Positions 1 through 8,446 of a DNA stretch of 8,446 bases are shown here, one piece after another. The translations under genes and the position numbers were made by a program. The notes under the pieces are model-generated. The model did no database searches. It was not told where the DNA came from and saw only the letters and a list, made by a program, of their open reading frames with translations. Position 1 is the first letter of the stretch. Every line of letters starts with the position of its first letter. Location: the IMG/VR virus record IMGVR_UViG_2684622670_000004, positions 1 through 8,446 of that record, one strand, 5' to 3'. Source of the stretch: a virus (lineage: Duplodnaviria; Heunggongvirae; Uroviricota; Caudoviricetes).

Positions 1-57
1 TGCACTCCATGTGTTAGCCGTGCTCAACAGGGGGATCTTTTCACCGCTTGTGCCAAG

Positions 58-83
58 TTCTCTTAAACCAAGGTTTAGGATTG
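58..83. other. Candidate cix/gix/hix-type crossover site of a DNA-inversion system (TTCTCTTAAACC-AA-GGTTTAGGATTG)
   Basis: Two imperfect inverted 12-bp half-sites (8/12 complementary) flank a central AA dinucleotide. From memory it fits the hix/gix pattern TTC..T.AAACC.AGGTTT.GGAT (about 19/26 identical to gixL as I recall it). It overlaps the stop codon (75-77) of the adjacent invertase gene. No partner site is present in the window. Confidence 0.5.
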
Positions 84-635
84 AAATGATGACGCAGGAA
101 ACTTTTTATAAAGCGTGGAAACAGCAACATCATAGATGATTGCAACCTGCTTACGGGGGATGCCATTCTCCAGCAATCGACGCATTTGCTGCCATGTTTC
201 TTCCGGGTATTTAGGTCTGCGGCCTCCTATTCGACCTTCTGCGCGAGCTGCATCAAGTCCAGCGCGTGTACGTTCAACGATAAGCTCGCGTTCCATTTCT
301 GCCAGTGCCCCCATTACGTGAAAGAAAAAGCGCCCCATTGGTGTACTGGTGTCGATGGAGTCAGTGAGACTCCGGAAGTTAATTCCTCTGTCACGTAGCT
401 CTTCCACCAGCACAACCAAGTGACGCATGCTGCGCCCAAGGCGATCTAACTTCCATACGATCAGGGTGTCACCTCTGGAAAGCATACGCAAAACCTTTTT
501 TAGCCCTGGGCGTTCAGCCTTTTTGCCGCTCGCCTTATCCTCAAAAATTAGCTCACATCCTGCGCTTTCAAGAGCGTTTCGTTGTAAAGCAGTGTTTTGT
601 TCATTTGTTGATACGCGTACATAGCCTATTAGCAT
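75..635 (-). CDS. cin: Serine recombinase, Hin/Gin/Cin/Pin-family DNA invertase (186 aa)
   Basis: N-terminal catalytic motif GYVRVSTNEQ with the active-site serine. Conserved WKLDRLGRS, SLTDSIDTS, MGRFFFHVMGALAEMERELIVERT and GRIGGR motifs, plus a C-terminal HTH (GIPRKQVAIIYDVAVSTLYKK). The symbol cin is inferred from the P1-like neighbourhood; the family call is firm, the exact orthologue (cin, gin or pin) is not. Confidence 0.9.
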   Translation of the reverse strand: MLIGYVRVSTNEQNTALQRNALESAGCELIFEDKASGKKAERPGLKKVLRMLSRGDTLIVWKLDRLGRSMRHLVVLVEELRDRGINFRSLTDSIDTSTPMGRFFFHVMGALAEMERELIVERTRAGLDAARAEGRIGGRRPKYPEETWQQMRRLLENGIPRKQVAIIYDVAVSTLYKKFPASSFQS

Positions 636-763
636 ATTTTCTGCTCACTATCGTTATTTATAGCAAGCTGCGGATTTTAATTAACAAAAAACCAGTATGT
701 GTGGAAATCACAAAGTACATACCGTTTCCCAATGAGATTTAATTCACTATTGAGGAAATAGTT
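636..763. promoter_or_regulatory. Divergent intergenic control region between the invertase gene and the lysis/dar operon
   Basis: AT-rich 128-bp spacer between divergent genes. Minus strand: possible -35 TTGTTA (plus coords 681-686) and -10 TATAAAT (655-661) with a 19-nt spacer, upstream of the invertase ATG. Plus strand: strong SD GAGGAA at 752-757, 6 nt before the ATG at 764. No clear sigma70 -35/-10 pair for the rightward operon, which would fit an activator-dependent late promoter. Confidence 0.3.
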
Positions 764-1045
764 ATGTTTGATTTCACAATAATGCTCCTCTCCATCCTTG
801 GCGGGGTGCATTCGTTTCTGAATGGGGTTCGTGAAAAACGTTACGAAGCGTCATGCAGGCAATTGATGGCCGAGTGTATTGCTGCCGTACTTGCAGGCTT
901 TATAGGCATGTATTTCGCGGAATATAAGGGTATGGATGAAAGTCTTCAGAATTGCGTGACTATTATTTGCAGCATCAATAACAGGCTCATTCTTGAAAAG
1001 TTACAAAGGATTATCGATTCGTACCTCAGTAGAAATGCCTCTTAA
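764..1045 (+). CDS. Small two-TM membrane protein, holin-like paralog of the downstream LydA-like gene (93 aa)
   Basis: ORF with a good SD. Two hydrophobic segments (FTIMLLSILGGVHSFLNGV and CIAAVLAGFIGMYFA). Clear paralogy to the next ORF (SILGGVHSFLNGVREKR vs SVIGGIGTFLMDVRDGRQ; VTIICSINN vs VTIASNN). Confidence 0.75.
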   Translation: MFDFTIMLLSILGGVHSFLNGVREKRYEASCRQLMAECIAAVLAGFIGMYFAEYKGMDESLQNCVTIICSINNRLILEKLQRIIDSYLSRNAS

Positions 1046-1086
1046 GCAACAAATGACCGGTTGAGAAGTTACTTTGCATACCATTA

Positions 1087-1106
1087 CCTCCTGACAACGT
1101 AGGAGG
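1087..1106 (+). promoter_or_regulatory. Possible SD-sequestering hairpin ahead of the LydA-like gene (CCTCCT-8 nt loop-AGGAGG)
   Basis: A 6-bp perfect stem in which the 3' arm is the AGGAGG Shine-Dalgarno of the GTG-initiated ORF at 1113. Could modulate holin translation. Seen only as sequence complementarity. Confidence 0.3.
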
Positions 1107-1112
1107 GAACTT

Positions 1113-1442
1113 GTGCTTGACACACAGGAATTAGCTCCAGTTGCTATTGCGCTCCTGCTTTCAGTAATTGGTGGGATAGGCACGTTCCTGATGGATGTCC
1201 GAGACGGTCGCCAGTCTGGCAATTTGTTGGGATTGGTTACGGAGATCTGTGTTGCAGTGACAGCTGGCGCGGTGGCGTACCTATTGGGGCAACATGAGGG
1301 CTGGGAGTTATCAATTACGTACTTAATGGTAACGATAGCCAGCAATAACGGTCATGAGGTGATTTCAGGGATGAAACGAGTGAATATCGATAGCATTCTG
1401 AATGTTCTTACAAGTTTGGTGAAAAAGGGAGGCGGGAAATGA
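1113..1442 (+). CDS. lydA: Holin, LydA-like (109 aa, GTG start)
   Basis: GTG start 6 nt after GGAGGG. Two to three predicted TM segments (LAPVAIALLLSVIGGIGTFLM, LLGLVTEICVAVTAGAVAYLLG). Its position immediately upstream of lydB-like/hdf/darA matches the P1 lysis-dar operon as I remember it. The stop overlaps the next start (ATGA). Confidence 0.75.
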   Translation: MLDTQELAPVAIALLLSVIGGIGTFLMDVRDGRQSGNLLGLVTEICVAVTAGAVAYLLGQHEGWELSITYLMVTIASNNGHEVISGMKRVNIDSILNVLTSLVKKGGGK

Positions 1443-1882
1443 TTGGCTGGGGTGTATGCGCTCTTGCGGCAGCCTTAGCTGATCGCTATTTGCTAAAACG
1501 CAAGGACATCACGAATTTAGAGCTTGGTGATGTGGAAATTAAACCGGGATTTATCCGGGTGCCGTTCAAATATCGGTCTAAATTCCCGTTTTTGCGCGGT
1601 GCAACGGTCAGATATTGGATCCGTGATGTTCAGAAGCCGACGACAGTGATTGAAGGCGAACAACGTTGCCTGACGTCGGCTGAACAGGGCGAAAACAGTG
1701 AATGGTTGTACATACCCACTGAATATATGGGTAAAGGAGAACGACTGTGGCATTTCAACGTCATGGTTACGCACGGCGACTCGTTCATTAACCCGTTGTA
1801 TCGGATTTTCCCTGTTACTCAGCAAATCCGCAGAAGTTACGTAATAAATCTCGCACAGGATGTGTCAGATGACGAAAAATAA
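1439..1882 (+). CDS. lydB: LydB-like holin antagonist / lysis regulator (147 aa)
   Basis: Start coupled to the lydA stop (ATGA overlap), with a GGGAGG SD. N-terminal hydrophobic segment (MIGWGVCALAAALA). Size and position match P1 LydB as recalled. Function inferred from synteny only. Confidence 0.65.
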   Translation: MIGWGVCALAAALADRYLLKRKDITNLELGDVEIKPGFIRVPFKYRSKFPFLRGATVRYWIRDVQKPTTVIEGEQRCLTSAEQGENSEWLYIPTEYMGKGERLWHFNVMVTHGDSFINPLYRIFPVTQQIRRSYVINLAQDVSDDEK

Positions 1883-2471
1883 GTATGCAACGGTCGATTT
1901 TGGCCAGGTTAATGAAAAGGGGCTGAAATCCCTTATCGCGGCGATCAATAAAACCGGTGTTACGGTAATTGAGGTTGACTCCAGCAACCGCGCAACAACG
2001 AAAGATGGCGTTAAAGTTAAAACCGCAAAGCTGGTTCTTAACGACGGACAAATTCTTGCCATACAGGTAAACGATACTGGTGATATATCGTCTGTGAAAC
2101 TGAATGGAAAAGCTATTCCTAATGCTCAATCGCCAGATATCAAGACGCTTGGTACCGTCATGGGGCAAGCGGCCCACAAAAACGCTGCAAAATTCCAGAA
2201 ATCACTGATCGCCAAAGCTAAACGTGTTGCCAATCCGGTAGACAAGAAACCGGCAGTTAAATCCAACTTTCAGCGCCTGCAAGAGGCAAAACAGCGGAAT
2301 GCTCAGGTGGTTGCCGCTTATAAATCCGCGCAGAACTCGGTGTCTTTCAATCAACAGCAGATCACTGATTTGCGGGCGAAGCTGGATAAGGAGACAGGTC
2401 GACTCAATAACGAAAAGGCCAGGAATGGCGAACTCAAACGCCGTCTTAAGCAACTGAAAGCAGGAAATTAA
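1860..2471 (+). CDS. hdf: Hdf, homolog of DarA fragment (203 aa; alternative start at 1869 gives 200 aa)
   Basis: Shares alignable blocks with the N-terminal third of the downstream 639-aa protein (LNDGQ-ILAIQ vs LSDGQ-TISIL; HKNAAKFQK vs EKNSAKFQR). C-terminal coiled-coil-like basic tail. The ATG at 1869 sits 9 nt after AGGA and is the more likely start. Confidence 0.75.
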   Translation: MCQMTKNKYATVDFGQVNEKGLKSLIAAINKTGVTVIEVDSSNRATTKDGVKVKTAKLVLNDGQILAIQVNDTGDISSVKLNGKAIPNAQSPDIKTLGTVMGQAAHKNAAKFQKSLIAKAKRVANPVDKKPAVKSNFQRLQEAKQRNAQVVAAYKSAQNSVSFNQQQITDLRAKLDKETGRLNNEKARNGELKRRLKQLKAGN

Positions 2472-2472
2472 C

Positions 2473-4392
2473 ATGGAACAGTTCAATATCAATAAAGGGG
2501 TGACGATTAAGCCGGGGCTTGACGTGCTTCCCCCGCCGGTGACTGATGATGAATATCGCGCATTAATGGCCGGTGAGGACCGCTATCTGATGACGGAATC
2601 CAACACCATGGAGGAAATCGAGGCTACGTTCTTCTATGACACGCCGATCCACTGGTGTACTACGGATTTACTGGAGGCGATTAGTTCTACTCGTTTGCAG
2701 TTACACCGGACCATGCAGGCATTTGTCCGGGCATTGAACCAGAAGCTTAATGGTACCGGAATCTCTGCGGGGAGTGATAAAACGGGGGATGTGGCCCAGA
2801 GCGGCACGCGAGCGATCGGCGGTGCTGAAATTGGCCGGGCACGTAACGTTAACGGGCTGCCGGTCCTGCCAGCCATTATTCCGCTCAGTGATGGTCAGAC
2901 TATCAGCATTCTGTTTCATAGCCTGACAGCGGAAAACCGGATCACCAATAGCGATACGCTGGTTGCTTTCCAGTTCTTACTGAATAAAAAAGACGTTACT
3001 CACACCGTTGCTCCGATGAGTGGACGTGATATGACGCTGGCACAGGTCACCATGAAACTTGCCAACCTTGCAGAGAAAAACTCGGCAAAATTCCAGCGTG
3101 CGCAGAAGAAGAAAAAAGCTCTTGTTGATGAAATAACCCAACTACAGGCTGACAGTGACCAGAAAGAGGATGCCATGAGCGACCTCGCGGATCAGGTGGC
3201 AGCGGTAGAAGGGCTGAAGGCAGATCTGGAGCAGAAAATTAACGCTGTTGCATCGGAAGCGGATTCTCTTTATGAAGAGAATGAGCGTTTGCAGACGGAG
3301 ATTGATCAGCTCAATCGCACAGGTGGGCGCGATACCATTGCTCCAGCGGGGATGACTGGTGGGCACTCGCGCGCGCTGACGGATCGCCTTGCCAGTATCA
3401 AAAATCGTATGCATATGAACGGGGAAGTGACGCTCAGTAATGGTGCATCAATGAAGCAATTCATTGAGGACGGCGAAGGGTATATCCAGTTAACCGATTC
3501 GGATGGCAGCGTGTACATGATCAAGGCTAAATCCATACAGGGTGTGGACATGGCAGATGCGATCGGCAAGCTGTTTAAAGCCTATAAAGCGGGTAATGTA
3601 TCGGAATATCTGGTCCAGCCAGAAGAACATAAACCAGAAAACGTCGAACCTGAACCAGCGGAGGATACCGGTAGCTCTTCGCCTGAACCAGAAGTCTCTG
3701 TAGGTGCATATCGATATGCCCTGCAAATGCGTCCGGCAGCCCCTGGCGCAATACCTGAAGGTAACAAAGCGATTCTGCCGCGCCCAGATGAAGGTGACCC
3801 GTATTATGAATATGCACGCTACGGCATTGCTACTTACGATACCCCGCTTTCTGATCAGCAAATGAGTGAGTACGACCTGAAGTTATTGCCTCGCGAGGAT
3901 TCTTTCGACTTCCTGGCGAAGACACTTACTAATGGTCCGTTTGGCAAATATGCACAAAAAGCTCTGGAGCTGGCCACCAGCTCACCAGACGAGTTCCGCG
4001 TAATGCTGAAAACTCAGTTTCAAAAAACTTTCCCCAATATTGCGTTTCCTGGGGGCGCAGGCACCGAGAAAATGGTGCAGAGCATGATCAATGCATTGCA
4101 GGCCGAAGTCGGTGAGATTACTCAACCAGAACCGGCCCCGGAACCGGCTGATGAAAAGGTTAGCGAAGCAGATGCAGAGGCTAATAAAGCCATTGAATAT
4201 CTCAATAACGTGATGGATATGCAAAGCACTGACATGGCGGAGATCCGCAACGCCAGGGGCAATGTCAGGGAAGCGATTGCTGCCCTTCAGGCTGCCGGAC
4301 GTTTTGATGAAAACGAAGAGCTGGTTAACGGCGCAGCTCGCCACCTGGCTGATCTGCTGGTAGCAATCCAGAAAGCGGGAGTAGCGGCATGA
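2473..4392 (+). CDS. darA: DarA-like capsid-internal anti-restriction / head morphogenesis protein (639 aa)
   Basis: ORF begins 1 nt after the hdf stop, with an AGGAAA SD. 639 aa matches my memory of P1 DarA. Has the internal Hdf-homologous segment, a central coiled-coil (KKKKALVDEITQLQ...EENERLQTEIDQLNR) and Pro/Glu-rich linkers (PENVEPEPAEDTGSSSPEPE; QPEPAPEPADEK). Confidence 0.8.
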   Translation: MEQFNINKGVTIKPGLDVLPPPVTDDEYRALMAGEDRYLMTESNTMEEIEATFFYDTPIHWCTTDLLEAISSTRLQLHRTMQAFVRALNQKLNGTGISAGSDKTGDVAQSGTRAIGGAEIGRARNVNGLPVLPAIIPLSDGQTISILFHSLTAENRITNSDTLVAFQFLLNKKDVTHTVAPMSGRDMTLAQVTMKLANLAEKNSAKFQRAQKKKKALVDEITQLQADSDQKEDAMSDLADQVAAVEGLKADLEQKINAVASEADSLYEENERLQTEIDQLNRTGGRDTIAPAGMTGGHSRALTDRLASIKNRMHMNGEVTLSNGASMKQFIEDGEGYIQLTDSDGSVYMIKAKSIQGVDMADAIGKLFKAYKAGNVSEYLVQPEEHKPENVEPEPAEDTGSSSPEPEVSVGAYRYALQMRPAAPGAIPEGNKAILPRPDEGDPYYEYARYGIATYDTPLSDQQMSEYDLKLLPREDSFDFLAKTLTNGPFGKYAQKALELATSSPDEFRVMLKTQFQKTFPNIAFPGGAGTEKMVQSMINALQAEVGEITQPEPAPEPADEKVSEADAEANKAIEYLNNVMDMQSTDMAEIRNARGNVREAIAALQAAGRFDENEELVNGAARHLADLLVAIQKAGVAA

Positions 4393-4754
4393 CACTATCA
4401 GCTATTGAGTTAATGGACCTCAGCGATAAGTTGGATGCTCTGATGTCCAAAGCTGCTACCGCGAGTGGCATGGAGTTGCTGGATATCAGCGATGAAATTG
4501 ACCAGATCATGCAACAGATGGGGTACGGCGCGTCCGGCGGCGGTAATGGCGAGGAAAAACAACCTTCGGTACATGATGGTATACCAAAACTGGTTGCTGA
4601 TTTCCTGGCTGATAAATTCGTCGATCAGAGCACCGATGCATTTATCGGTACGTTGCAGGACTTAAGTCAATATGTTGGCACATACATCGACCTGGACCAG
4701 GTTAAACAGCACACGGCGGTATGGATAGCCGCCAACATTAAAGAGGCAGCATAA
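4389..4754 (+). CDS. ddrA: DdrA-like small acidic protein downstream of darA (121 aa)
   Basis: Start overlaps the darA stop (ATGA), with a GGGAG SD. Acidic, with a Gly-rich loop (GYGASGGGNGEE). Position and size fit P1 ddrA as recalled. Confidence 0.65.
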   Translation: MTLSAIELMDLSDKLDALMSKAATASGMELLDISDEIDQIMQQMGYGASGGGNGEEKQPSVHDGIPKLVADFLADKFVDQSTDAFIGTLQDLSQYVGTYIDLDQVKQHTAVWIAANIKEAA

Positions 4755-4766
4755 GGCGTAACAGGG

Positions 4767-6455
4767 ATGAGTTTAAACGATCAGATAGTTATGACCACCA
4801 GCAGCGGATACAACGGTGTTGCGCCATATACCAGCTTGTTATTACATCGGGCATCCGGCATCAAAGATATTATTCACCTGATCCGGCTGCTTTCCCGCAC
4901 AGATCCCCAGGATGAACAGCTGGTACAAGTGCTTGCGCATTTTGTCCGAATCCCTGTTGCAGACGTGAAAAAATGGTGTCGATTATTCGGTATCAGCAAT
5001 TCGTTACTTCGCGGATTGTTAAATCACGCATCCTCCCTTGGGCGAGACGGCTTTGATGAGATAGCGCAGGCGATAAAAAACGGAGATATGCCACCAGCTA
5101 TTGACTGGTTTTCCATTCGCCCAACCAGGGTGAAAGCATTCCTTAGCGCGGCGCAATCAGCATCACCATTGGCAGAAATGGTTCAGAGGTTGTCGCTCAT
5201 ATTCACAGATCATACCGCGTTTGGTGATCTGGCTCTGGACGAGATGAAAGAAGCCGCCATTCAGTGGGCCGATCAACAAAATGAGGTTAACTCTGACTTC
5301 TTGCCAGCATTCAGGAAGGCCGTTAGTAAAGCGGATGATGCCCGTGGAATTATGAAGGCATTTAAGGCATTGCAAAGTCGGGTTAATAAACATGCCGGTG
5401 ATATCGATGGGGTAACGGCGGAAGGCCGGGATATCCTGAAAGAGCACGGCATAACGCCAGAATTTATTGATGAGATCAGGACGGATATGCAGCGTGAGGT
5501 CGTATCGTCTCTGCAAATCGTAGCCAGGGCGTTGGCGGATGCTAATCCGAAGAGTGCGGCCATTGTTAACCGGGTTATTGGTGATATTGAAGCATCTGAG
5601 GGCATGGGGGCACTGAAACTCTTCCTTTCGCGAGCGTTTAATCCTAACGGCAATATTCTTCCCGGCATTATTGGTGAGGCTAAAAAGTATGTCAGTGAAG
5701 AAGAACTTGAGCAGCTTGACCAACTACTTAAGCGATTCTCATATAACCCGCAGACACGCTGGCAAATGAATCAGCGAGGTATGGGTTTGGTCCACGAGAA
5801 AGTGTTATCTGCCATGAACAGTGCGATCGCAAACTCATCTGTATCTGAAGAAAAAGCTCTTGAGTGGGCCGACTCTTTTATCACGGAAGAAGTGGAAGAA
5901 GCCCGCGCTGGACAGAATGGTGGGATAGACCTGCGCAAGGAACTTGCTGATATTTATCGCCTGAGCGGCGGGAAAATATCGACCTTATCAAAGGTAGTTC
6001 ACCACCAGGGAAGGGCATATGCAAATCTAAATGGTGTTGTTGCTGTCAATTTGAACGATGAAAATGCAAGTGCACTGTGGCACGAGCTGGGTCATCATCT
6101 TGAGTACAGTAACCCTGGTTTGTTAGAGAAAGCCCGGTCATTCCTGAAGGCCAATGTTGAAGGGGATAAACCATCTTTCGTTAATATCGGTGGGCGTGGC
6201 AAGCCTGAATGGTGCTTCAGATCTCAATTGAGTAATATTTATATGGCGAAGGTATACCCGCCAGTCTCAGTAAGTAACACCGGGAAAATTCGGCAGAAAT
6301 CACCGACTATTTCCAAAACGTCAGCAACGGAAGTATTCTCTATGGCTCTTCAGTTGTATCATGACAAAGAGGCCGCTGCCGCATCACTGATGAATGGTGA
6401 CGGATTGCTGGAACTGTTATTAGGTGTGGCAAAGGAGCTAAATAATGCAGATTAA
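4767..6455 (+). CDS. HExxH-motif putative zinc metallopeptidase in the ddrB position of the dar operon (562 aa)
   Basis: Long ORF with operon-consistent codon usage. Near the C-terminus is WHELGHHLEY (HExxH zincin signature) with downstream Glu candidates (LLEKARSF; NVEGD) for the third ligand. I do not recognise the N-terminal two-thirds. I cannot confirm orthology to P1 DdrB from memory. Confidence 0.7.
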   Translation: MSLNDQIVMTTSSGYNGVAPYTSLLLHRASGIKDIIHLIRLLSRTDPQDEQLVQVLAHFVRIPVADVKKWCRLFGISNSLLRGLLNHASSLGRDGFDEIAQAIKNGDMPPAIDWFSIRPTRVKAFLSAAQSASPLAEMVQRLSLIFTDHTAFGDLALDEMKEAAIQWADQQNEVNSDFLPAFRKAVSKADDARGIMKAFKALQSRVNKHAGDIDGVTAEGRDILKEHGITPEFIDEIRTDMQREVVSSLQIVARALADANPKSAAIVNRVIGDIEASEGMGALKLFLSRAFNPNGNILPGIIGEAKKYVSEEELEQLDQLLKRFSYNPQTRWQMNQRGMGLVHEKVLSAMNSAIANSSVSEEKALEWADSFITEEVEEARAGQNGGIDLRKELADIYRLSGGKISTLSKVVHHQGRAYANLNGVVAVNLNDENASALWHELGHHLEYSNPGLLEKARSFLKANVEGDKPSFVNIGGRGKPEWCFRSQLSNIYMAKVYPPVSVSNTGKIRQKSPTISKTSATEVFSMALQLYHDKEAAAASLMNGDGLLELLLGVAKELNNAD

Positions 6456-6765
6456 AATCGCAGCGCCATTAGGCGGAGATGCCATTATCGAATTTGATGA
6501 TAATGAAGAAGTTTCCGGGCGTTTAAGCATTATCTCCGGTGACATTACCGAGGACATGATCGCTGAAGCCATAGCTGGGGCAAATCCCAATAGCTATATG
6601 GGATTCGTTAACACCCTTGATGCTCCCGCAAGTGATGTTCTCCGAACGCTGCATCTTTACGCTGGCTGGTTTGTTGATTGGCCAGCAGTAGATGGTGGCG
6701 ATGAGGATGATGATGACGATGAAGAGGGTTTTAGTGATGAAACAGTCAACCAACTCTTGTATTGA
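6445..6765 (+). CDS. Hyperacidic small protein, possible DNA-mimic-type anti-restriction factor (106 aa)
   Basis: AAGGAG SD 8 nt before the ATG. Overlaps the preceding stop by 11 nt. About 27 Asp/Glu against 3 Lys/Arg, with a C-terminal DGGDEDDDDDEEGFSDE tract. Last gene of the operon. Confidence 0.7.
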   Translation: MQIKIAAPLGGDAIIEFDDNEEVSGRLSIISGDITEDMIAEAIAGANPNSYMGFVNTLDAPASDVLRTLHLYAGWFVDWPAVDGGDEDDDDDEEGFSDETVNQLLY

Positions 6766-6968: not shown

Positions 6969-7175
6969 TTAGTTTTGAGGCAATGCAACAAAAGTCAGCT
7001 CTTGATCTTTGATTAATGCTTTTGTTTGTTTGGATGTAATTCCCACTTTAGTTTTTACATCATTGTGGAGCTTCTTATACGCTTTTATTTCATCTGCTGT
7101 ATATCGGAAGCCATTTGCACTGTTACTGGACAGTTGAAGTGCGATTACGTCATCACTGACACCCGCATCGCTTAG
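6969..7175 (-). pseudogene. Start-less 68-codon protein-like open frame, possible remnant of a truncated gene
   Basis: Minus-strand frame translating to LSDAGVSDDVIALQLSSNSANGFRYTADEIKAYKKLHNDVKTKVGITSKQTKALIKDQELTFVALPQN*. It is bounded upstream by an in-frame TAG (plus 7176-7178) and contains no ATG. All three upstream frames are stop-rich. Composition is not typical of random AT-rich translation. Confidence 0.25.
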
Positions 7176-7469
7176 CTATGCGGGTAATAGTGTGGCCTGC
7201 GCGAGTGTTTGTGGTGGATATTTTGTCTAAGAAATTGTTCAGTTTTGCCATTGTTTACAACCTCTTACTTGAGTTTATTGCAAGTAGAATTGCTACTATT
7301 CTTTTGCCTCAACGAATCACAATGTACTGGAATAAGAAACTATGAGCAATACTTACGCTTTGCGAATACAGAAGATGAATAATCAACTTATTACTAAAAT
7401 GTTAATAATATTATTCTGTTACATAGTGTTCGCTATAACAATCGGGAGTTGAATGCTAATTCAATAAAT

Positions 7470-7497
7470 AAAGAACCCGCCAATTGGCGGGTTCTTT
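7470..7497. terminator. Bidirectional rho-independent terminator (AAAGAACCCGCC-AATT-GGCGGGTTCTTT)
   Basis: Perfect 12-bp GC-containing stem with a 4-nt loop. Flanked by a T-run on the plus strand (TTTTTA) and by ATTTATTTATT on the minus strand. Directly abuts the stop codon of the convergent 264-aa gene. Confidence 0.75.
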
Positions 7498-8292
7498 TTA
7501 ATCACTTTCCACTTCTTCCGTGGTGTTTTCTTGCAGTTCTGTTAATGCAGCACGACACAGGTTCCGGGCCTTGGCTATAGCCACACTTTTTACCTCATCC
7601 GTCATTGTGCAGGTAATGTACTGATCGAGTTCTTCAGCTCGGATGATGCTTTTCCCAATCATAAACTCTATTTGCCAGAGCAGATCGGCATCCATCGTCA
7701 GTATTTCAGCCTGGCCTTCTGGGCCTGCGGGGAAGCAAACATAAGACTGTTTTCCCAGGCCGATAACTCGACAACTTGCTTCAAGAATTGCGCGCTTGAG
7801 GTCTGACTTTGTAACGGAAACAGGTTGGTTTTCACCAGTGATTACGCCGTTGACATGGAAGTGGAAGGGCATGTAGCTTGAAATTCGCTCTACTTTCCAT
7901 ACGCCAGCAAGCGATCCTTCATGCAGCACAATGGGGGTAACCGCGAGTTTCATCTCACCATATAACTGCTGGCAGATAGCTGGATTGCTGAATACATCCA
8001 AAGGCTCACATTCAAACAGCGGCGCAATCTGCATGAGGTCCATCATGGTCATCCCTGGGGTCCGAGCAGTAATGAATTTGCGCATGCCAGTATCCATTGT
8101 GCGCCAGATAGCCATACCATGCTTTTTGCTCACTTCTTCAGTAAAACCAAGGTGGCACATGATGGTCTTTTCGATAGCCAGATCAGAGATAGAAACCTTT
8201 TCGCCTGGCACTCCATCATTATTGATGGTCACTTCGACACTCTGGCCATTACGTAGGCGGTATTGAATGGTTTTAGTATTTTGTGCTGTCAT
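7498..8292 (-). CDS. Hypothetical protein, function unknown (264 aa)
   Basis: Long uninterrupted ORF ending at the terminator. Weak SD (GAGAAAAGA) 14 nt after the stop of an upstream partial ORF, suggesting an operon. Contains His-rich segments (PIVLHEGS; MPFHFHVNG) but no motif I can assign to a family. Confidence 0.7.
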   Translation of the reverse strand: MTAQNTKTIQYRLRNGQSVEVTINNDGVPGEKVSISDLAIEKTIMCHLGFTEEVSKKHGMAIWRTMDTGMRKFITARTPGMTMMDLMQIAPLFECEPLDVFSNPAICQQLYGEMKLAVTPIVLHEGSLAGVWKVERISSYMPFHFHVNGVITGENQPVSVTKSDLKRAILEASCRVIGLGKQSYVCFPAGPEGQAEILTMDADLLWQIEFMIGKSIIRAEELDQYITCTMTDEVKSVAIAKARNLCRAALTELQENTTEEVESD

Positions 8293-8306
8293 AGTCTTTT
8301 CTCTGC

Positions 8307-8446
8307 TTAAAAACTGATGTATTGCGCCTTCAGGTTGGTTAGGAATGTTTTCCCACCAGCGAAAGCAATATCTCGGGGTGTTCTATTCGTTGTAGAGTAG
8401 GCCTCTGGTTTGAAGTCATCTCCCCAGCAGCCCCTCGTCAAACCGT
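8307..8446 (-). CDS. 3' end of a minus-strand gene truncated by the window edge (last 45 codons plus stop)
   Basis: Open frame from the window edge to TAA (plus 8307-8309), translating to ...GLTRGCWGDDFKPEAYSTTNRTPRDIAFAGGKTFLTNLKAQYISF*. It is 14 nt upstream of the 264-aa gene start. No start codon is visible because the 5' end lies outside the window. Confidence 0.4.
   Translation of the reverse strand, partial: GLTRGCWGDDFKPEAYSTTNRTPRDIAFAGGKTFLTNLKAQYISF

Follow-up and report, generated by a model that had tools for sequence, protein, structure and literature searches.

The locus analyzed here raises the question of whether a compact run of lysis and anti-restriction genes resembling those of phage P1 is a diverged variant with new cargo at its distal end, or the P1 operon itself. 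The whole stretch of DNA examined, referred to below as the window, comprises the 8,446 nucleotides of IMG/VR record IMGVR_UViG_2684622670_000004. The open reading frame listing of the window places eight consecutive plus-strand ORFs at 764-6765, exactly where a first-pass annotation, made from the sequence without database searches, had described eight same-strand genes with minimal or negative spacing. Their order is lydC, lydA, lydB, hdf, darA, ddrA, ddrB and hxr, and the spacings between them are, in that order, 67, -4, -23, +1, -4, +12 and -11 nt, all seven equal to those annotated in phage P1 (AF234172). The junctions named in that annotation are all present in the sequence, namely the ATGA overlaps at 1439-1442 (lydA/lydB) and 4389-4392 (darA/ddrA), a spacing of a single nucleotide between hdf and darA, and the 11-nt overlap of ddrB with hxr. 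Three further junctions complete the picture: a 23-nt overlap of lydB with hdf, a 12-nt gap between ddrA and ddrB, and a 67-nt gap between lydC and lydA.

Identity to P1 at the DNA level is 96.8% across window positions 1-4803, 4809-6720 and 7498-8390, the proteins are 93-99% identical to their P1 counterparts across all genes, and the Pfam and PHROG assignments of all genes are consistent with the P1 roles. Because the seven spacings equal those of P1 and every product matches a P1 protein at 93-99%, a chance pattern is ruled out. We therefore conclude with high confidence that the window originates from a P1-like (Punavirus) phage-plasmid and that the operon is the canonical P1 dar (darA) late operon; this degree of confidence applies to our best explanation as a whole, that is, to the identity of the operon together with the short-DdrB parts described below. 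A late operon joining lysis genes to capsid-packaged anti-restriction genes is already known and is a textbook feature of P1.

The first gene, lydC (764..1045, plus strand), encodes an accessory class II holin of 93 aa that is 96.8% identical to P1 LydC and matches Pfam PF16083 and the PHROG 1527 holin family. It had been taken for an extra holin-like paralog; P1 itself carries it at the same place, where it lies upstream of the dar operon and is described as monocistronic, with a putative early promoter (PMC9025707; P1 annotation). Across the lydC-lydA spacer (1046-1112) the sequence shows 100% identity to P1; the spacer includes, immediately upstream of lydA, the late promoter LPdar (1066..1084, plus strand), with a -22 box, AAGTTACTT, at 1066-1074 and a -10 element, TACCAT, at 1079-1084; these 19 nt match the annotated P1 feature exactly. 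Because LPdar falls within this 67-nt gap, the late operon consists of seven genes and lydC is a separate unit upstream of it. The tight coupling previously attributed to all eight genes holds for the seven at 1113-6765 and fails for lydC, which is followed by the promoter-bearing gap. Within the seven-gene unit, the order lydA-lydB-hdf-darA-ddrA-ddrB-hxr runs on one strand in abutting or overlapping frames, as in P1.

Downstream of the promoter, a hairpin of the form CCTCCT-N8-AGGAGG (1087..1106, plus strand) pairs the lydA Shine-Dalgarno sequence. It has an RNA folding energy of -12.7 kcal/mol (z -2.5) and is identical in P1, and we infer for it a role in translation control. The holin gene lydA (1113..1442, plus strand; 109 aa, GTG start) is 99.1% identical to its P1 counterpart at the protein level and matches PF16083, while lydB (1439..1882, plus strand; 147 aa), encoding the LydA antagonist or antiholin, shows 96.6% identity to P1 LydB and a match to PF16084 with an E value of 3e-101.

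The expectation that a P1 darA operon would continue from lydA and lydB into hdf, darA and ddrA is borne out by identity to P1: the 203-, 639- and 121-aa proteins, whose similarity to Hdf, DarA and DdrA had been proposed as decisive for this reading, are 97.5%, 96.9% and 95.0% identical to them, respectively. The first two are further identified by full-length matches to chains H and I of PDB entry 9ukm, which are P1 cryo-EM chains. Hdf (1860..2471, plus strand; 203 aa as annotated in P1) matches 9ukm_H and contains a DarA_N domain (PF18788). Translation probably begins at the 1869 ATG, which would make the protein 200 aa long, given that an AGGA lies about 9 nt before this codon and none is usefully placed before 1860; the later ATG is also the start used in RefSeq plasmids and in a diverged relative. 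The capsid-internal protein DarA (2473..4392, plus strand; 639 aa) contains both DarA_N and DarA_C (PF18789) and matches 9ukm_I over residues 1-639. DdrA (4389..4754, plus strand; 121 aa) belongs to PHROG 1855, DdrA-like anti-restriction protein.

The next gene, ddrB (4767..6455, plus strand), is a short allele encoding a 62-kDa protein of 562 aa, compared with 995 in P1. It comprises the P1 ribosome site, start codon and first 9 codons, followed by the C-terminal 553 residues (P1 residues 443-995), which hold a helical region and an HExxH zincin-like domain; accordingly, it matches PHROG 2299 at positions 445-995. According to the protein alignment, P1 residues 10-442 are absent, and with them the ddrB-ParB domain, a helical linker and the antisense gene iddB. 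The ddrB-ParB model (PF18763) has no Pfam match in the window DdrB, whereas P1 DdrB matches it at residues 36-167 (E 2e-39). The 433-codon junction relative to P1 is in frame and reads VM/TTSSG/YN (4788..4814, plus strand), with nucleotide identity to P1 breaking between 4803 and 4809. The C-terminal zincin-like metallopeptidase (MPTase) domain spans residues ~335-562 (5769..6452, plus strand), including HELGH at 6081-6095, and all eight invariant residues of the family are kept, as is the HExxH peptidase that characterizes the C terminus of DdrB-type polyvalent proteins. Searches of the short DdrB against PDB sequences gave no match at E up to 1, and no Pfam or NCBIfam model matches its C-terminal domain.

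As to the origin of this allele, a simple deletion from P1 itself was considered and rejected. A few bases at the junction depart from the P1 sequence on either flank, and there is no clear microhomology, so another long allele was the parent. We also considered a deletion that placed a DarB-like capsid-targeting helix at the DdrB N terminus. In a local comparison the first 30 residues of DarB align best with residues 22-43 of the short DdrB, a score equalled by 3.6-5.2% of shuffles, and this is a weak lead only. Across the operon, this minority ddrB allele, which does not have the nuclease-like domain, is the only real difference from P1.

The same contiguous junction was found in 21 of 466 plasmid records and in 9 of 475 E. 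coli genomes, in varied hosts; it occurred in 0 of 19 isolated-phage records, a sample in which only about one was expected. A natural, in-frame, ParB-less ddrB allele is circulating in about 2-5% of P1-like plasmids while being annotated as a pseudogene. Short DdrB forms are also present among relatives of 31-40% identity, and a diverged P1-like contig encodes a DdrB of 558 aa that is 45% identical and has the same N-terminal boundary, in the order lydA-lydB-hdf-darA-ddrA-ddrB-hxr and with darB also present; the ParB domain is kept in 7 of 10 distant relatives. A rule that short ddrB accompanies the loss of darB and ulx was examined and set aside. The counts (5/15 versus 20/451, Fisher p 6e-4) do not come from independent cases, three of which are crane isolates that are nearly identical, and the rule is further contradicted by pE148-2, in which short ddrB is found with darB.

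The last gene of the operon, hxr (6445..6765, plus strand), encodes an acidic orphan protein of 106 aa, 93% identical to P1 Hxr, whose frame overlaps ddrB by 11 nt and which we infer to be translationally coupled to it. The tail differs from P1 after nt 6720, affecting the last 11-15 residues. An AlphaFold2 model of moderate quality (pLDDT 71) shows a beta-beta-beta-alpha-alpha core and a disordered poly-D/E tail, and a fold search found no match among solved or viral predicted structures. A relation to DNA-mimic anti-restriction proteins of the Ocr/ArdA type was also considered for Hxr: the protein is strongly acidic, and it gave no sequence or fold match to any solved or viral predicted structure, the fold being judged from a model with a pLDDT of only 71.

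Beyond hxr, the window contains the remnant of a 95-aa ORF (6969..7251, minus strand), which is frameshifted by a 5-nt slip, the loss of one GCTTA tandem copy at ~7170, and is intact in pEA4_97 (9016-9303 of that locus). Further downstream, a perfect palindromic hairpin (7470..7497, no strand assigned) folds at -21 kcal/mol on the plus strand (z -7.1) and at about -22 kcal/mol on the minus strand (z -5.4), with U-rich tails on both strands. It is a probable bidirectional intrinsic terminator closing the dar transcript and the convergent isaA, and the dar transcript probably extends to it. Searched in full against Rfam with E up to 0.1, the window gave nothing near a gathering score, the matches at 7392-7502 being driven by this terminator hairpin.

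These observations bear directly on the proposal of the first-pass annotation that the operon is a diverged P1-family variant with an extra holin paralog, whose two distal, unassignable genes may be novel anti-defence cargo. Variation among relatives lends this idea some plausibility: the region beyond hxr carries isaB and IS1 in P1 and ompC in some plasmids, the 732-nt spacer that follows hxr here is found in only 15 plasmids, and in E. albertii relatives ddrA and ddrB are separated by an inserted gldA. Relatives do vary past hxr, but in the window this region holds only the frameshifted small ORF, without a family match, and the terminator. The distal pair corresponds to ddrB and hxr of P1, their aligned parts being 94.5% and 93% identical, the supposed extra holin is P1 lydC, and an operon with the nucleotide identity reported above is not diverged. 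Judged by the alignments, the operon shows loss of sequence relative to P1, amounting to 433 ddrB codons, and no gain. We regard the novel-cargo reading as scarcely credible, since the P1 alignments and per-gene identities already refute it at the sequence level. The variation itself marks the ddrA/ddrB boundary and the segment past hxr as sites of cargo gain and loss in P1-like elements (gldA, ompC, IS1). It is similarly very improbable that Hxr is an Xre-type helix-turn-helix repressor regulating from the operon end, as the P1 annotation would have it. The protein has no Pfam, NCBIfam or helix-turn-helix match at E up to 0.01, its net charge of -22 and pI of 4.05 are unfavourable for DNA binding, and its model begins with three beta strands and offers only two helices besides the poly-acidic tail. 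The label "Xre homolog" is unsupported and should not be propagated.

The status of the short ddrB is a closer matter. One reading holds that it is a dead deletion remnant, passively carried in a Dar system that is effectively ddrB-null. RefSeq flags it as a pseudogene ("incomplete; missing N-terminus"), published P1 work describes ddrB as non-essential and dispensable for plaque formation, most D6-group phage-plasmids lack the gene, and one relative (L006) has two indels or frameshifts in it. In addition, short ddrB is found in 5 of 15 plasmids without darB and ulx, which could reflect relaxed selection on the DarB-loading branch. Against decay, the original start and ribosome-binding site are kept, and 6 of 7 loci have an unbroken 562-codon frame even though dS among them reaches 0.09; dN/dS is 0.14-0.20 (about 0.15), although this low ratio could also stem from selection in long-allele backgrounds followed by recombination. 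The invariant residues and the overlap with hxr are likewise preserved, the same architecture recurs in the darB-bearing relative at 45% identity, and pE148-2 has short ddrB alongside intact darB and ulx. We consider the pseudogene reading unlikely. From its sequence features, the short DdrB would be expressed and functional as a peptidase-plus-helical-region protein, even if ParB loss may cost it some function, and if it is functional, the ParB-like module would be an accessory effector and not the DdrB core. A broader proposal, which we put forward tentatively as a possibility still short of an even chance, is that the short DdrB is being kept as a working "minimal" DdrB, that the ParB-like module of the P1 Dar system is a swappable accessory effector, and that Hxr, conserved at the operon end, is an acidic, non-helix-turn-helix anti-defence factor and not a repressor. 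Were this true, the ddrB N-terminal slot would be a module-exchange site in P1-like phage-plasmids (ParB present or absent, gldA inserted, DarA fusion). The short allele offers a ready-made natural experiment for telling apart what each half of DdrB does.

The functional roles given to these genes are carried over from P1; late Lpa-dependent transcription, head packaging and cis protection from type I restriction are properties of P1 that would apply here by analogy. In P1, late-infection transcription begins at LPdar, the holin LydA and the antiholin LydB set the timing of lysis, and Hdf and DarA attach to the inner wall of the capsid where pentons and hexons meet, make contact with DNA and set head size (published P1 work). 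The published P1 work also describes Hdf and DarA as required for loading DdrA, DdrB, DarB and Ulx, and the loaded proteins as ejected with the DNA, which they protect in cis from type I restriction; DarA, Hdf and DdrA counter the EcoA family and DarB, Ulx and DdrB counter EcoB and EcoK. DdrB has a form of 76 kDa in P1 virions. By extension, the operon in the window would be transcribed from LPdar late in infection, LydA and LydB would time lysis, and Hdf and DarA, on the inner capsid wall, would set head size and load DdrA, DdrB, DarB and Ulx. Ejection of these proteins with the DNA would then confer cis protection from type I restriction, with the short DdrB acting as a peptidase and helical region without the ParB-like module.

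Head-loaded proteins that are ejected with DNA and counter restriction are also known from T4, where IPI* (cited in PMC5512222 and PMC9024508) is the example; the likeness is drawn from the P1 literature, there is no sequence or fold relation, and the Dar proteins, unlike IPI*, also determine head size. Polyvalent proteins of the DdrB type combine a ddrB-ParB domain with a C-terminal zincin MPTase (Iyer et al. 2017, PMC5512222). The window DdrB shares their HExxH peptidase with all invariant residues, but it is no longer polyvalent, because the defining N-terminal ddrB-ParB domain is absent. The closest known system is the dar operon of P1 itself (AF234172/NC_005856; Iida 1998, Lobocka 2004), with the same gene order, strand, seven spacings and LPdar, and with lydC upstream in both; the window differs in the loss of DdrB residues 10-442 (ddrB-ParB and linker) together with antisense iddB, and in having a 732-nt AT-rich spacer in place of the downstream isaB and IS1. 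Among plasmids, E. albertii pEA18_2 (NZ_CP117639.1) is 99.0% identical over window positions 1-6722 and has the identical short-ddrB junction, but has neither darB nor ulx and, where the window has the spacer, carries a different gene, while E. coli pE148-2 (NZ_AP024520.1) is a P1-like phage-plasmid with the same ddrB allele. Two further records, NZ_CP117630 and NZ_CP043272, resemble the window in combining the short ddrB with the 732-nt spacer.

The interval 764-6765 is filled by eight consecutive plus-strand open reading frames (ORFs, called on the window), and the junctions that the first-pass annotation had described are all present in the sequence: ATGA overlaps at 1439-1442 and 4389-4392, a one-base gap separating the 203-aa ORF from the 639-aa ORF, and an overlap of 11 nt where the last two ORFs (ddrB/hxr) meet. 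The remaining junctions are gaps of 67 nt between the first two ORFs and 12 nt at 4755-4766, and an overlap of 23 nt at 1860-1882; all seven spacings (67, -4, -23, +1, -4, +12 and -11) are equal in the window and in P1. Among phage genomes, megablast placed P1 and its relatives closest, at 95-97% identity, and 586 plasmid records match the window, most of them Escherichia plasmids that are non-mobilizable and about 90-100 kb in size. The window aligns with P1 (AF234172) at 96.8% identity in three blocks, in which positions 1-4803, 4809-6720 and 7498-8390 correspond to P1 locus positions 1501-6302, 7607-9518 and 11264-12156, respectively.

According to the P1 annotation, the eight ORFs are, in order, lydC, lydA, lydB, hdf, darA, ddrA, ddrB and hxr. 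Their products show 96.8% (LydC), 99.1% (LydA), 96.6% (LydB), 97.5% (Hdf), 96.9% (DarA), 95.0% (DdrA), 94.5% (DdrB, shared part) and 93.1% (Hxr) identity to the P1 proteins, so that the naming of the 203-, 639- and 121-aa products as Hdf, DarA and DdrA holds. Pfam and PHROGs are consistent with the assignment of every operon gene, and DarA and Hdf gave full-length matches to chains of the P1 cryo-EM structure 9ukm. Together, these identities, spacings, family matches and structural matches identify the operon, at the level of sequence, as the already known P1 dar operon. To its left, the window begins inside the P1 invertible C segment (end of Sv'), and positions 1-635 then carry the cixL crossover core (61-80, P1 annotation) and, on the minus strand, cin (75-635), encoding a resolvase-type invertase 98.4% identical to P1 Cin.

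The supposed extra holin-like paralog at the 5' end is lydC, which P1 carries in the same position; there it is described as monocistronic, with a putative early promoter, as lying immediately before the dar operon and as encoding an accessory canonical holin (PMC9025707). The entire lydC-lydA spacer is identical to P1, and the late promoter LPdar lies inside this 67-nt gap, with all 19 bases exact at 1066-1084; the tightly coupled late unit therefore comprises seven genes, at 1113-6765. A hairpin at 1087-1106 (CCTCCT-N8-AGGAGG, 6-7 bp, -12.7 kcal/mol, z -2.5), also identical in sequence in P1, pairs the lydA Shine-Dalgarno and may damp holin translation. As for hdf, the start annotated in P1 (ATG 1860) lacks a usable ribosome site, and ATG 1869, from which RefSeq plasmids and a diverged P1-like relative (L008) begin the gene, has AGGA about 9 nt upstream; on this basis, Hdf is probably 200 aa long rather than 203.

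The two genes first left unassigned are ddrB and hxr, both known in P1, and in place of the novel distal cargo that had been suggested, the operon contains nothing new relative to P1, its sole structural difference being a loss. P1 DdrB (995 aa) has a ddrB-like ParB domain (PF18763) at residues 36-167, then a helical part and, at its C-terminus, a zincin-like metallopeptidase (Iyer et al. 2017). The window DdrB, of 562 aa, keeps the start codon and the nine N-terminal residues of P1, followed by the five-residue junction TTSSG and P1 residues about 448-995; missing are the ParB domain, about 270 linker residues and the antisense gene iddB, and a Pfam search of this protein gave no ParB match. 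Its structure matches include PPEP-3 (7.6, 141, 3.4), PPEP-2 (7.2, 133, 3.3), lethal factor (6.6, 139, 6.3) and MtfA (6.5, 131, 3.2), the others in the same list being helical bundles aligned to the N-terminal half. For the DarB N-terminus, whose capsid-targeting role is defined by experiment, the best alignment is with residues 22-43 (nt 4830-4895, SLLLHRASGIKDIIHLIRLLS), at marginal significance, an equal score being reached in 4-5% of shuffles; in P1 DdrB these residues lie internally (455-476), and the deletion moves them near the N-terminus.

The short junction is contiguous in 21 of the 466 plasmid records carrying the region, from E. coli, E. albertii and E. fergusonii (horse, human, cranes, crow, poultry, swine and veal), and of 475 complete E. 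coli genomes that harbor a P1-like element, 9 have it; among 19 phage records it was found in none. At least four more E. albertii plasmids carry a short ddrB with an insertion. This is gldA (glycerol/propanediol dehydrogenase), which separates ddrA from ddrB and runs in the opposite orientation (pEA4_97, NZ_CP117679.1, locus L002, 5247-6793), a metabolic cargo within a late anti-restriction operon. Other rearrangements were seen among related proteins: P0031 (693 aa, 74 contigs), widespread and named DarA in UniRef, fuses DarA residues 1 to about 345 in frame to the C-terminal ~350 residues of DdrB, dropping the DarA C-terminus, ddrA and the N-terminal half of DdrB, and P0022 joins ParB straight to the C-terminal part, without the linker.

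RefSeq labels the short ddrB of pE148-2 (NZ_AP024520.1, L011 2294-3952, LDN98_RS25105) an incomplete pseudogene missing its N-terminus, an annotation that accounts for the gap at short ddrB in PLSDB gene tables. Despite this label, the reading frame there begins at the P1 start codon and is unbroken over 562 codons, and the ORF is intact in six of the seven loci examined. Pairwise dS across the short loci reaches 0.09, with dN/dS of 0.14-0.20, the same as against the P1 long allele; these low ratios may have been earned in long-allele backgrounds. A diverged P1-like contig, 61-78% identical from LydA through DdrA and ordered lydA-lydB-hdf-darA-ddrA-ddrB-hxr, has a 558-aa DdrB with the same N-terminal boundary, together with a 2254-aa DarB, and among ten more distant relatives the ParB domain is present in seven and absent from three. 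We favor reading the short ddrB as a working gene minus an accessory module. In the window lineage, a deletion would be the parsimonious account of its origin, since the short gene agrees with the long allele in its first nine codons and in the region upstream. The short allele occurs together with intact darB and ulx in pE148-2, and without either in pEA18_2. The latter (L009 11450-12500) and 14 further P1-like plasmids run from lxc directly to the portal gene prt, without ulx and the 2255-aa darB, and five of these 15 carry a short ddrB; a link between this absence and a short ddrB is suggestive, the cases being non-independent and the link not strict.

The P1 record labels Hxr a possible Xre-like repressor on weak grounds, and we found this label unsupported. 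Hxr has no match in Pfam or NCBIfam, and its homologues form only 15 clusters, every one in P1-like elements. The predicted fold (pLDDT 71) has three strands and two helices, then a disordered poly-Asp/Glu tail; net charge is -22 and pI 4.05. A 44%-identical relative keeps the operon-end position, overlapping start and acidic tail, and another (P0007, 184 aa) carries two tandem copies of the core domain ahead of the same acidic tail. P1 hxr is non-essential, and Hxr is not among the virion proteins listed. That it acts as a DNA mimic is only a guess.

Past hxr, the window enters an AT-rich stretch (36-38% G+C) and leaves P1: in place of isaB and IS1 it has 732 nt that just 15 plasmid records contain. 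Some short-ddrB plasmids carry ompC (porin) at this position instead (L004 5795-6205; L007 4808-5226), which marks the stretch after hxr as a cargo exchange point. Within the spacer, a minus-strand remnant (6969-7251) of a 95-aa ORF of no known family, intact in pEA4_97 (L002 9016-9303), is frameshifted near 7170, where one of two tandem GCTTA copies has been lost; this could be real decay or sequencing error. Between hxr and the isaA stop lies a perfect palindromic hairpin of 12 bp (7470-7497). It has U-rich tails on both strands and likely serves as a terminator in both directions, ending the dar transcript and that of isaA; the Rfam scan of the window returned nothing real. The right flank is isaA, named from the P1 annotation (minus strand, 7498-8292), a 264-aa ORF compared with 320 aa in P1; within 7498-8446 similarity to P1 stops at 8390, so the isaA 5' region differs.

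The interpretation of the locus as a dar operon thus stands, without the extra holin, the unassignable genes or novelty relative to P1; two by-products, minor but of use, are the ddrB allele lacking ParB and the Hxr annotation that has no support. In P1, LPdar is active late, the timing of lysis is set by LydA and LydB along with an unlinked lysozyme, and the inside of the capsid is lined, where pentons and hexons join, by 55 DarA-Hdf pairs that touch DNA. DarA and Hdf determine head size and are needed for loading DdrA, DdrB, DarB and Ulx, and DdrB is listed as aiding DarB addition to the capsid. The loaded Dar proteins exit together with the DNA, shielding it in cis against type I restriction and BREX. 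Set against this system, the window element would retain a complete DarA/Hdf/DdrA branch, with DdrB cut to its helical and peptidase parts.
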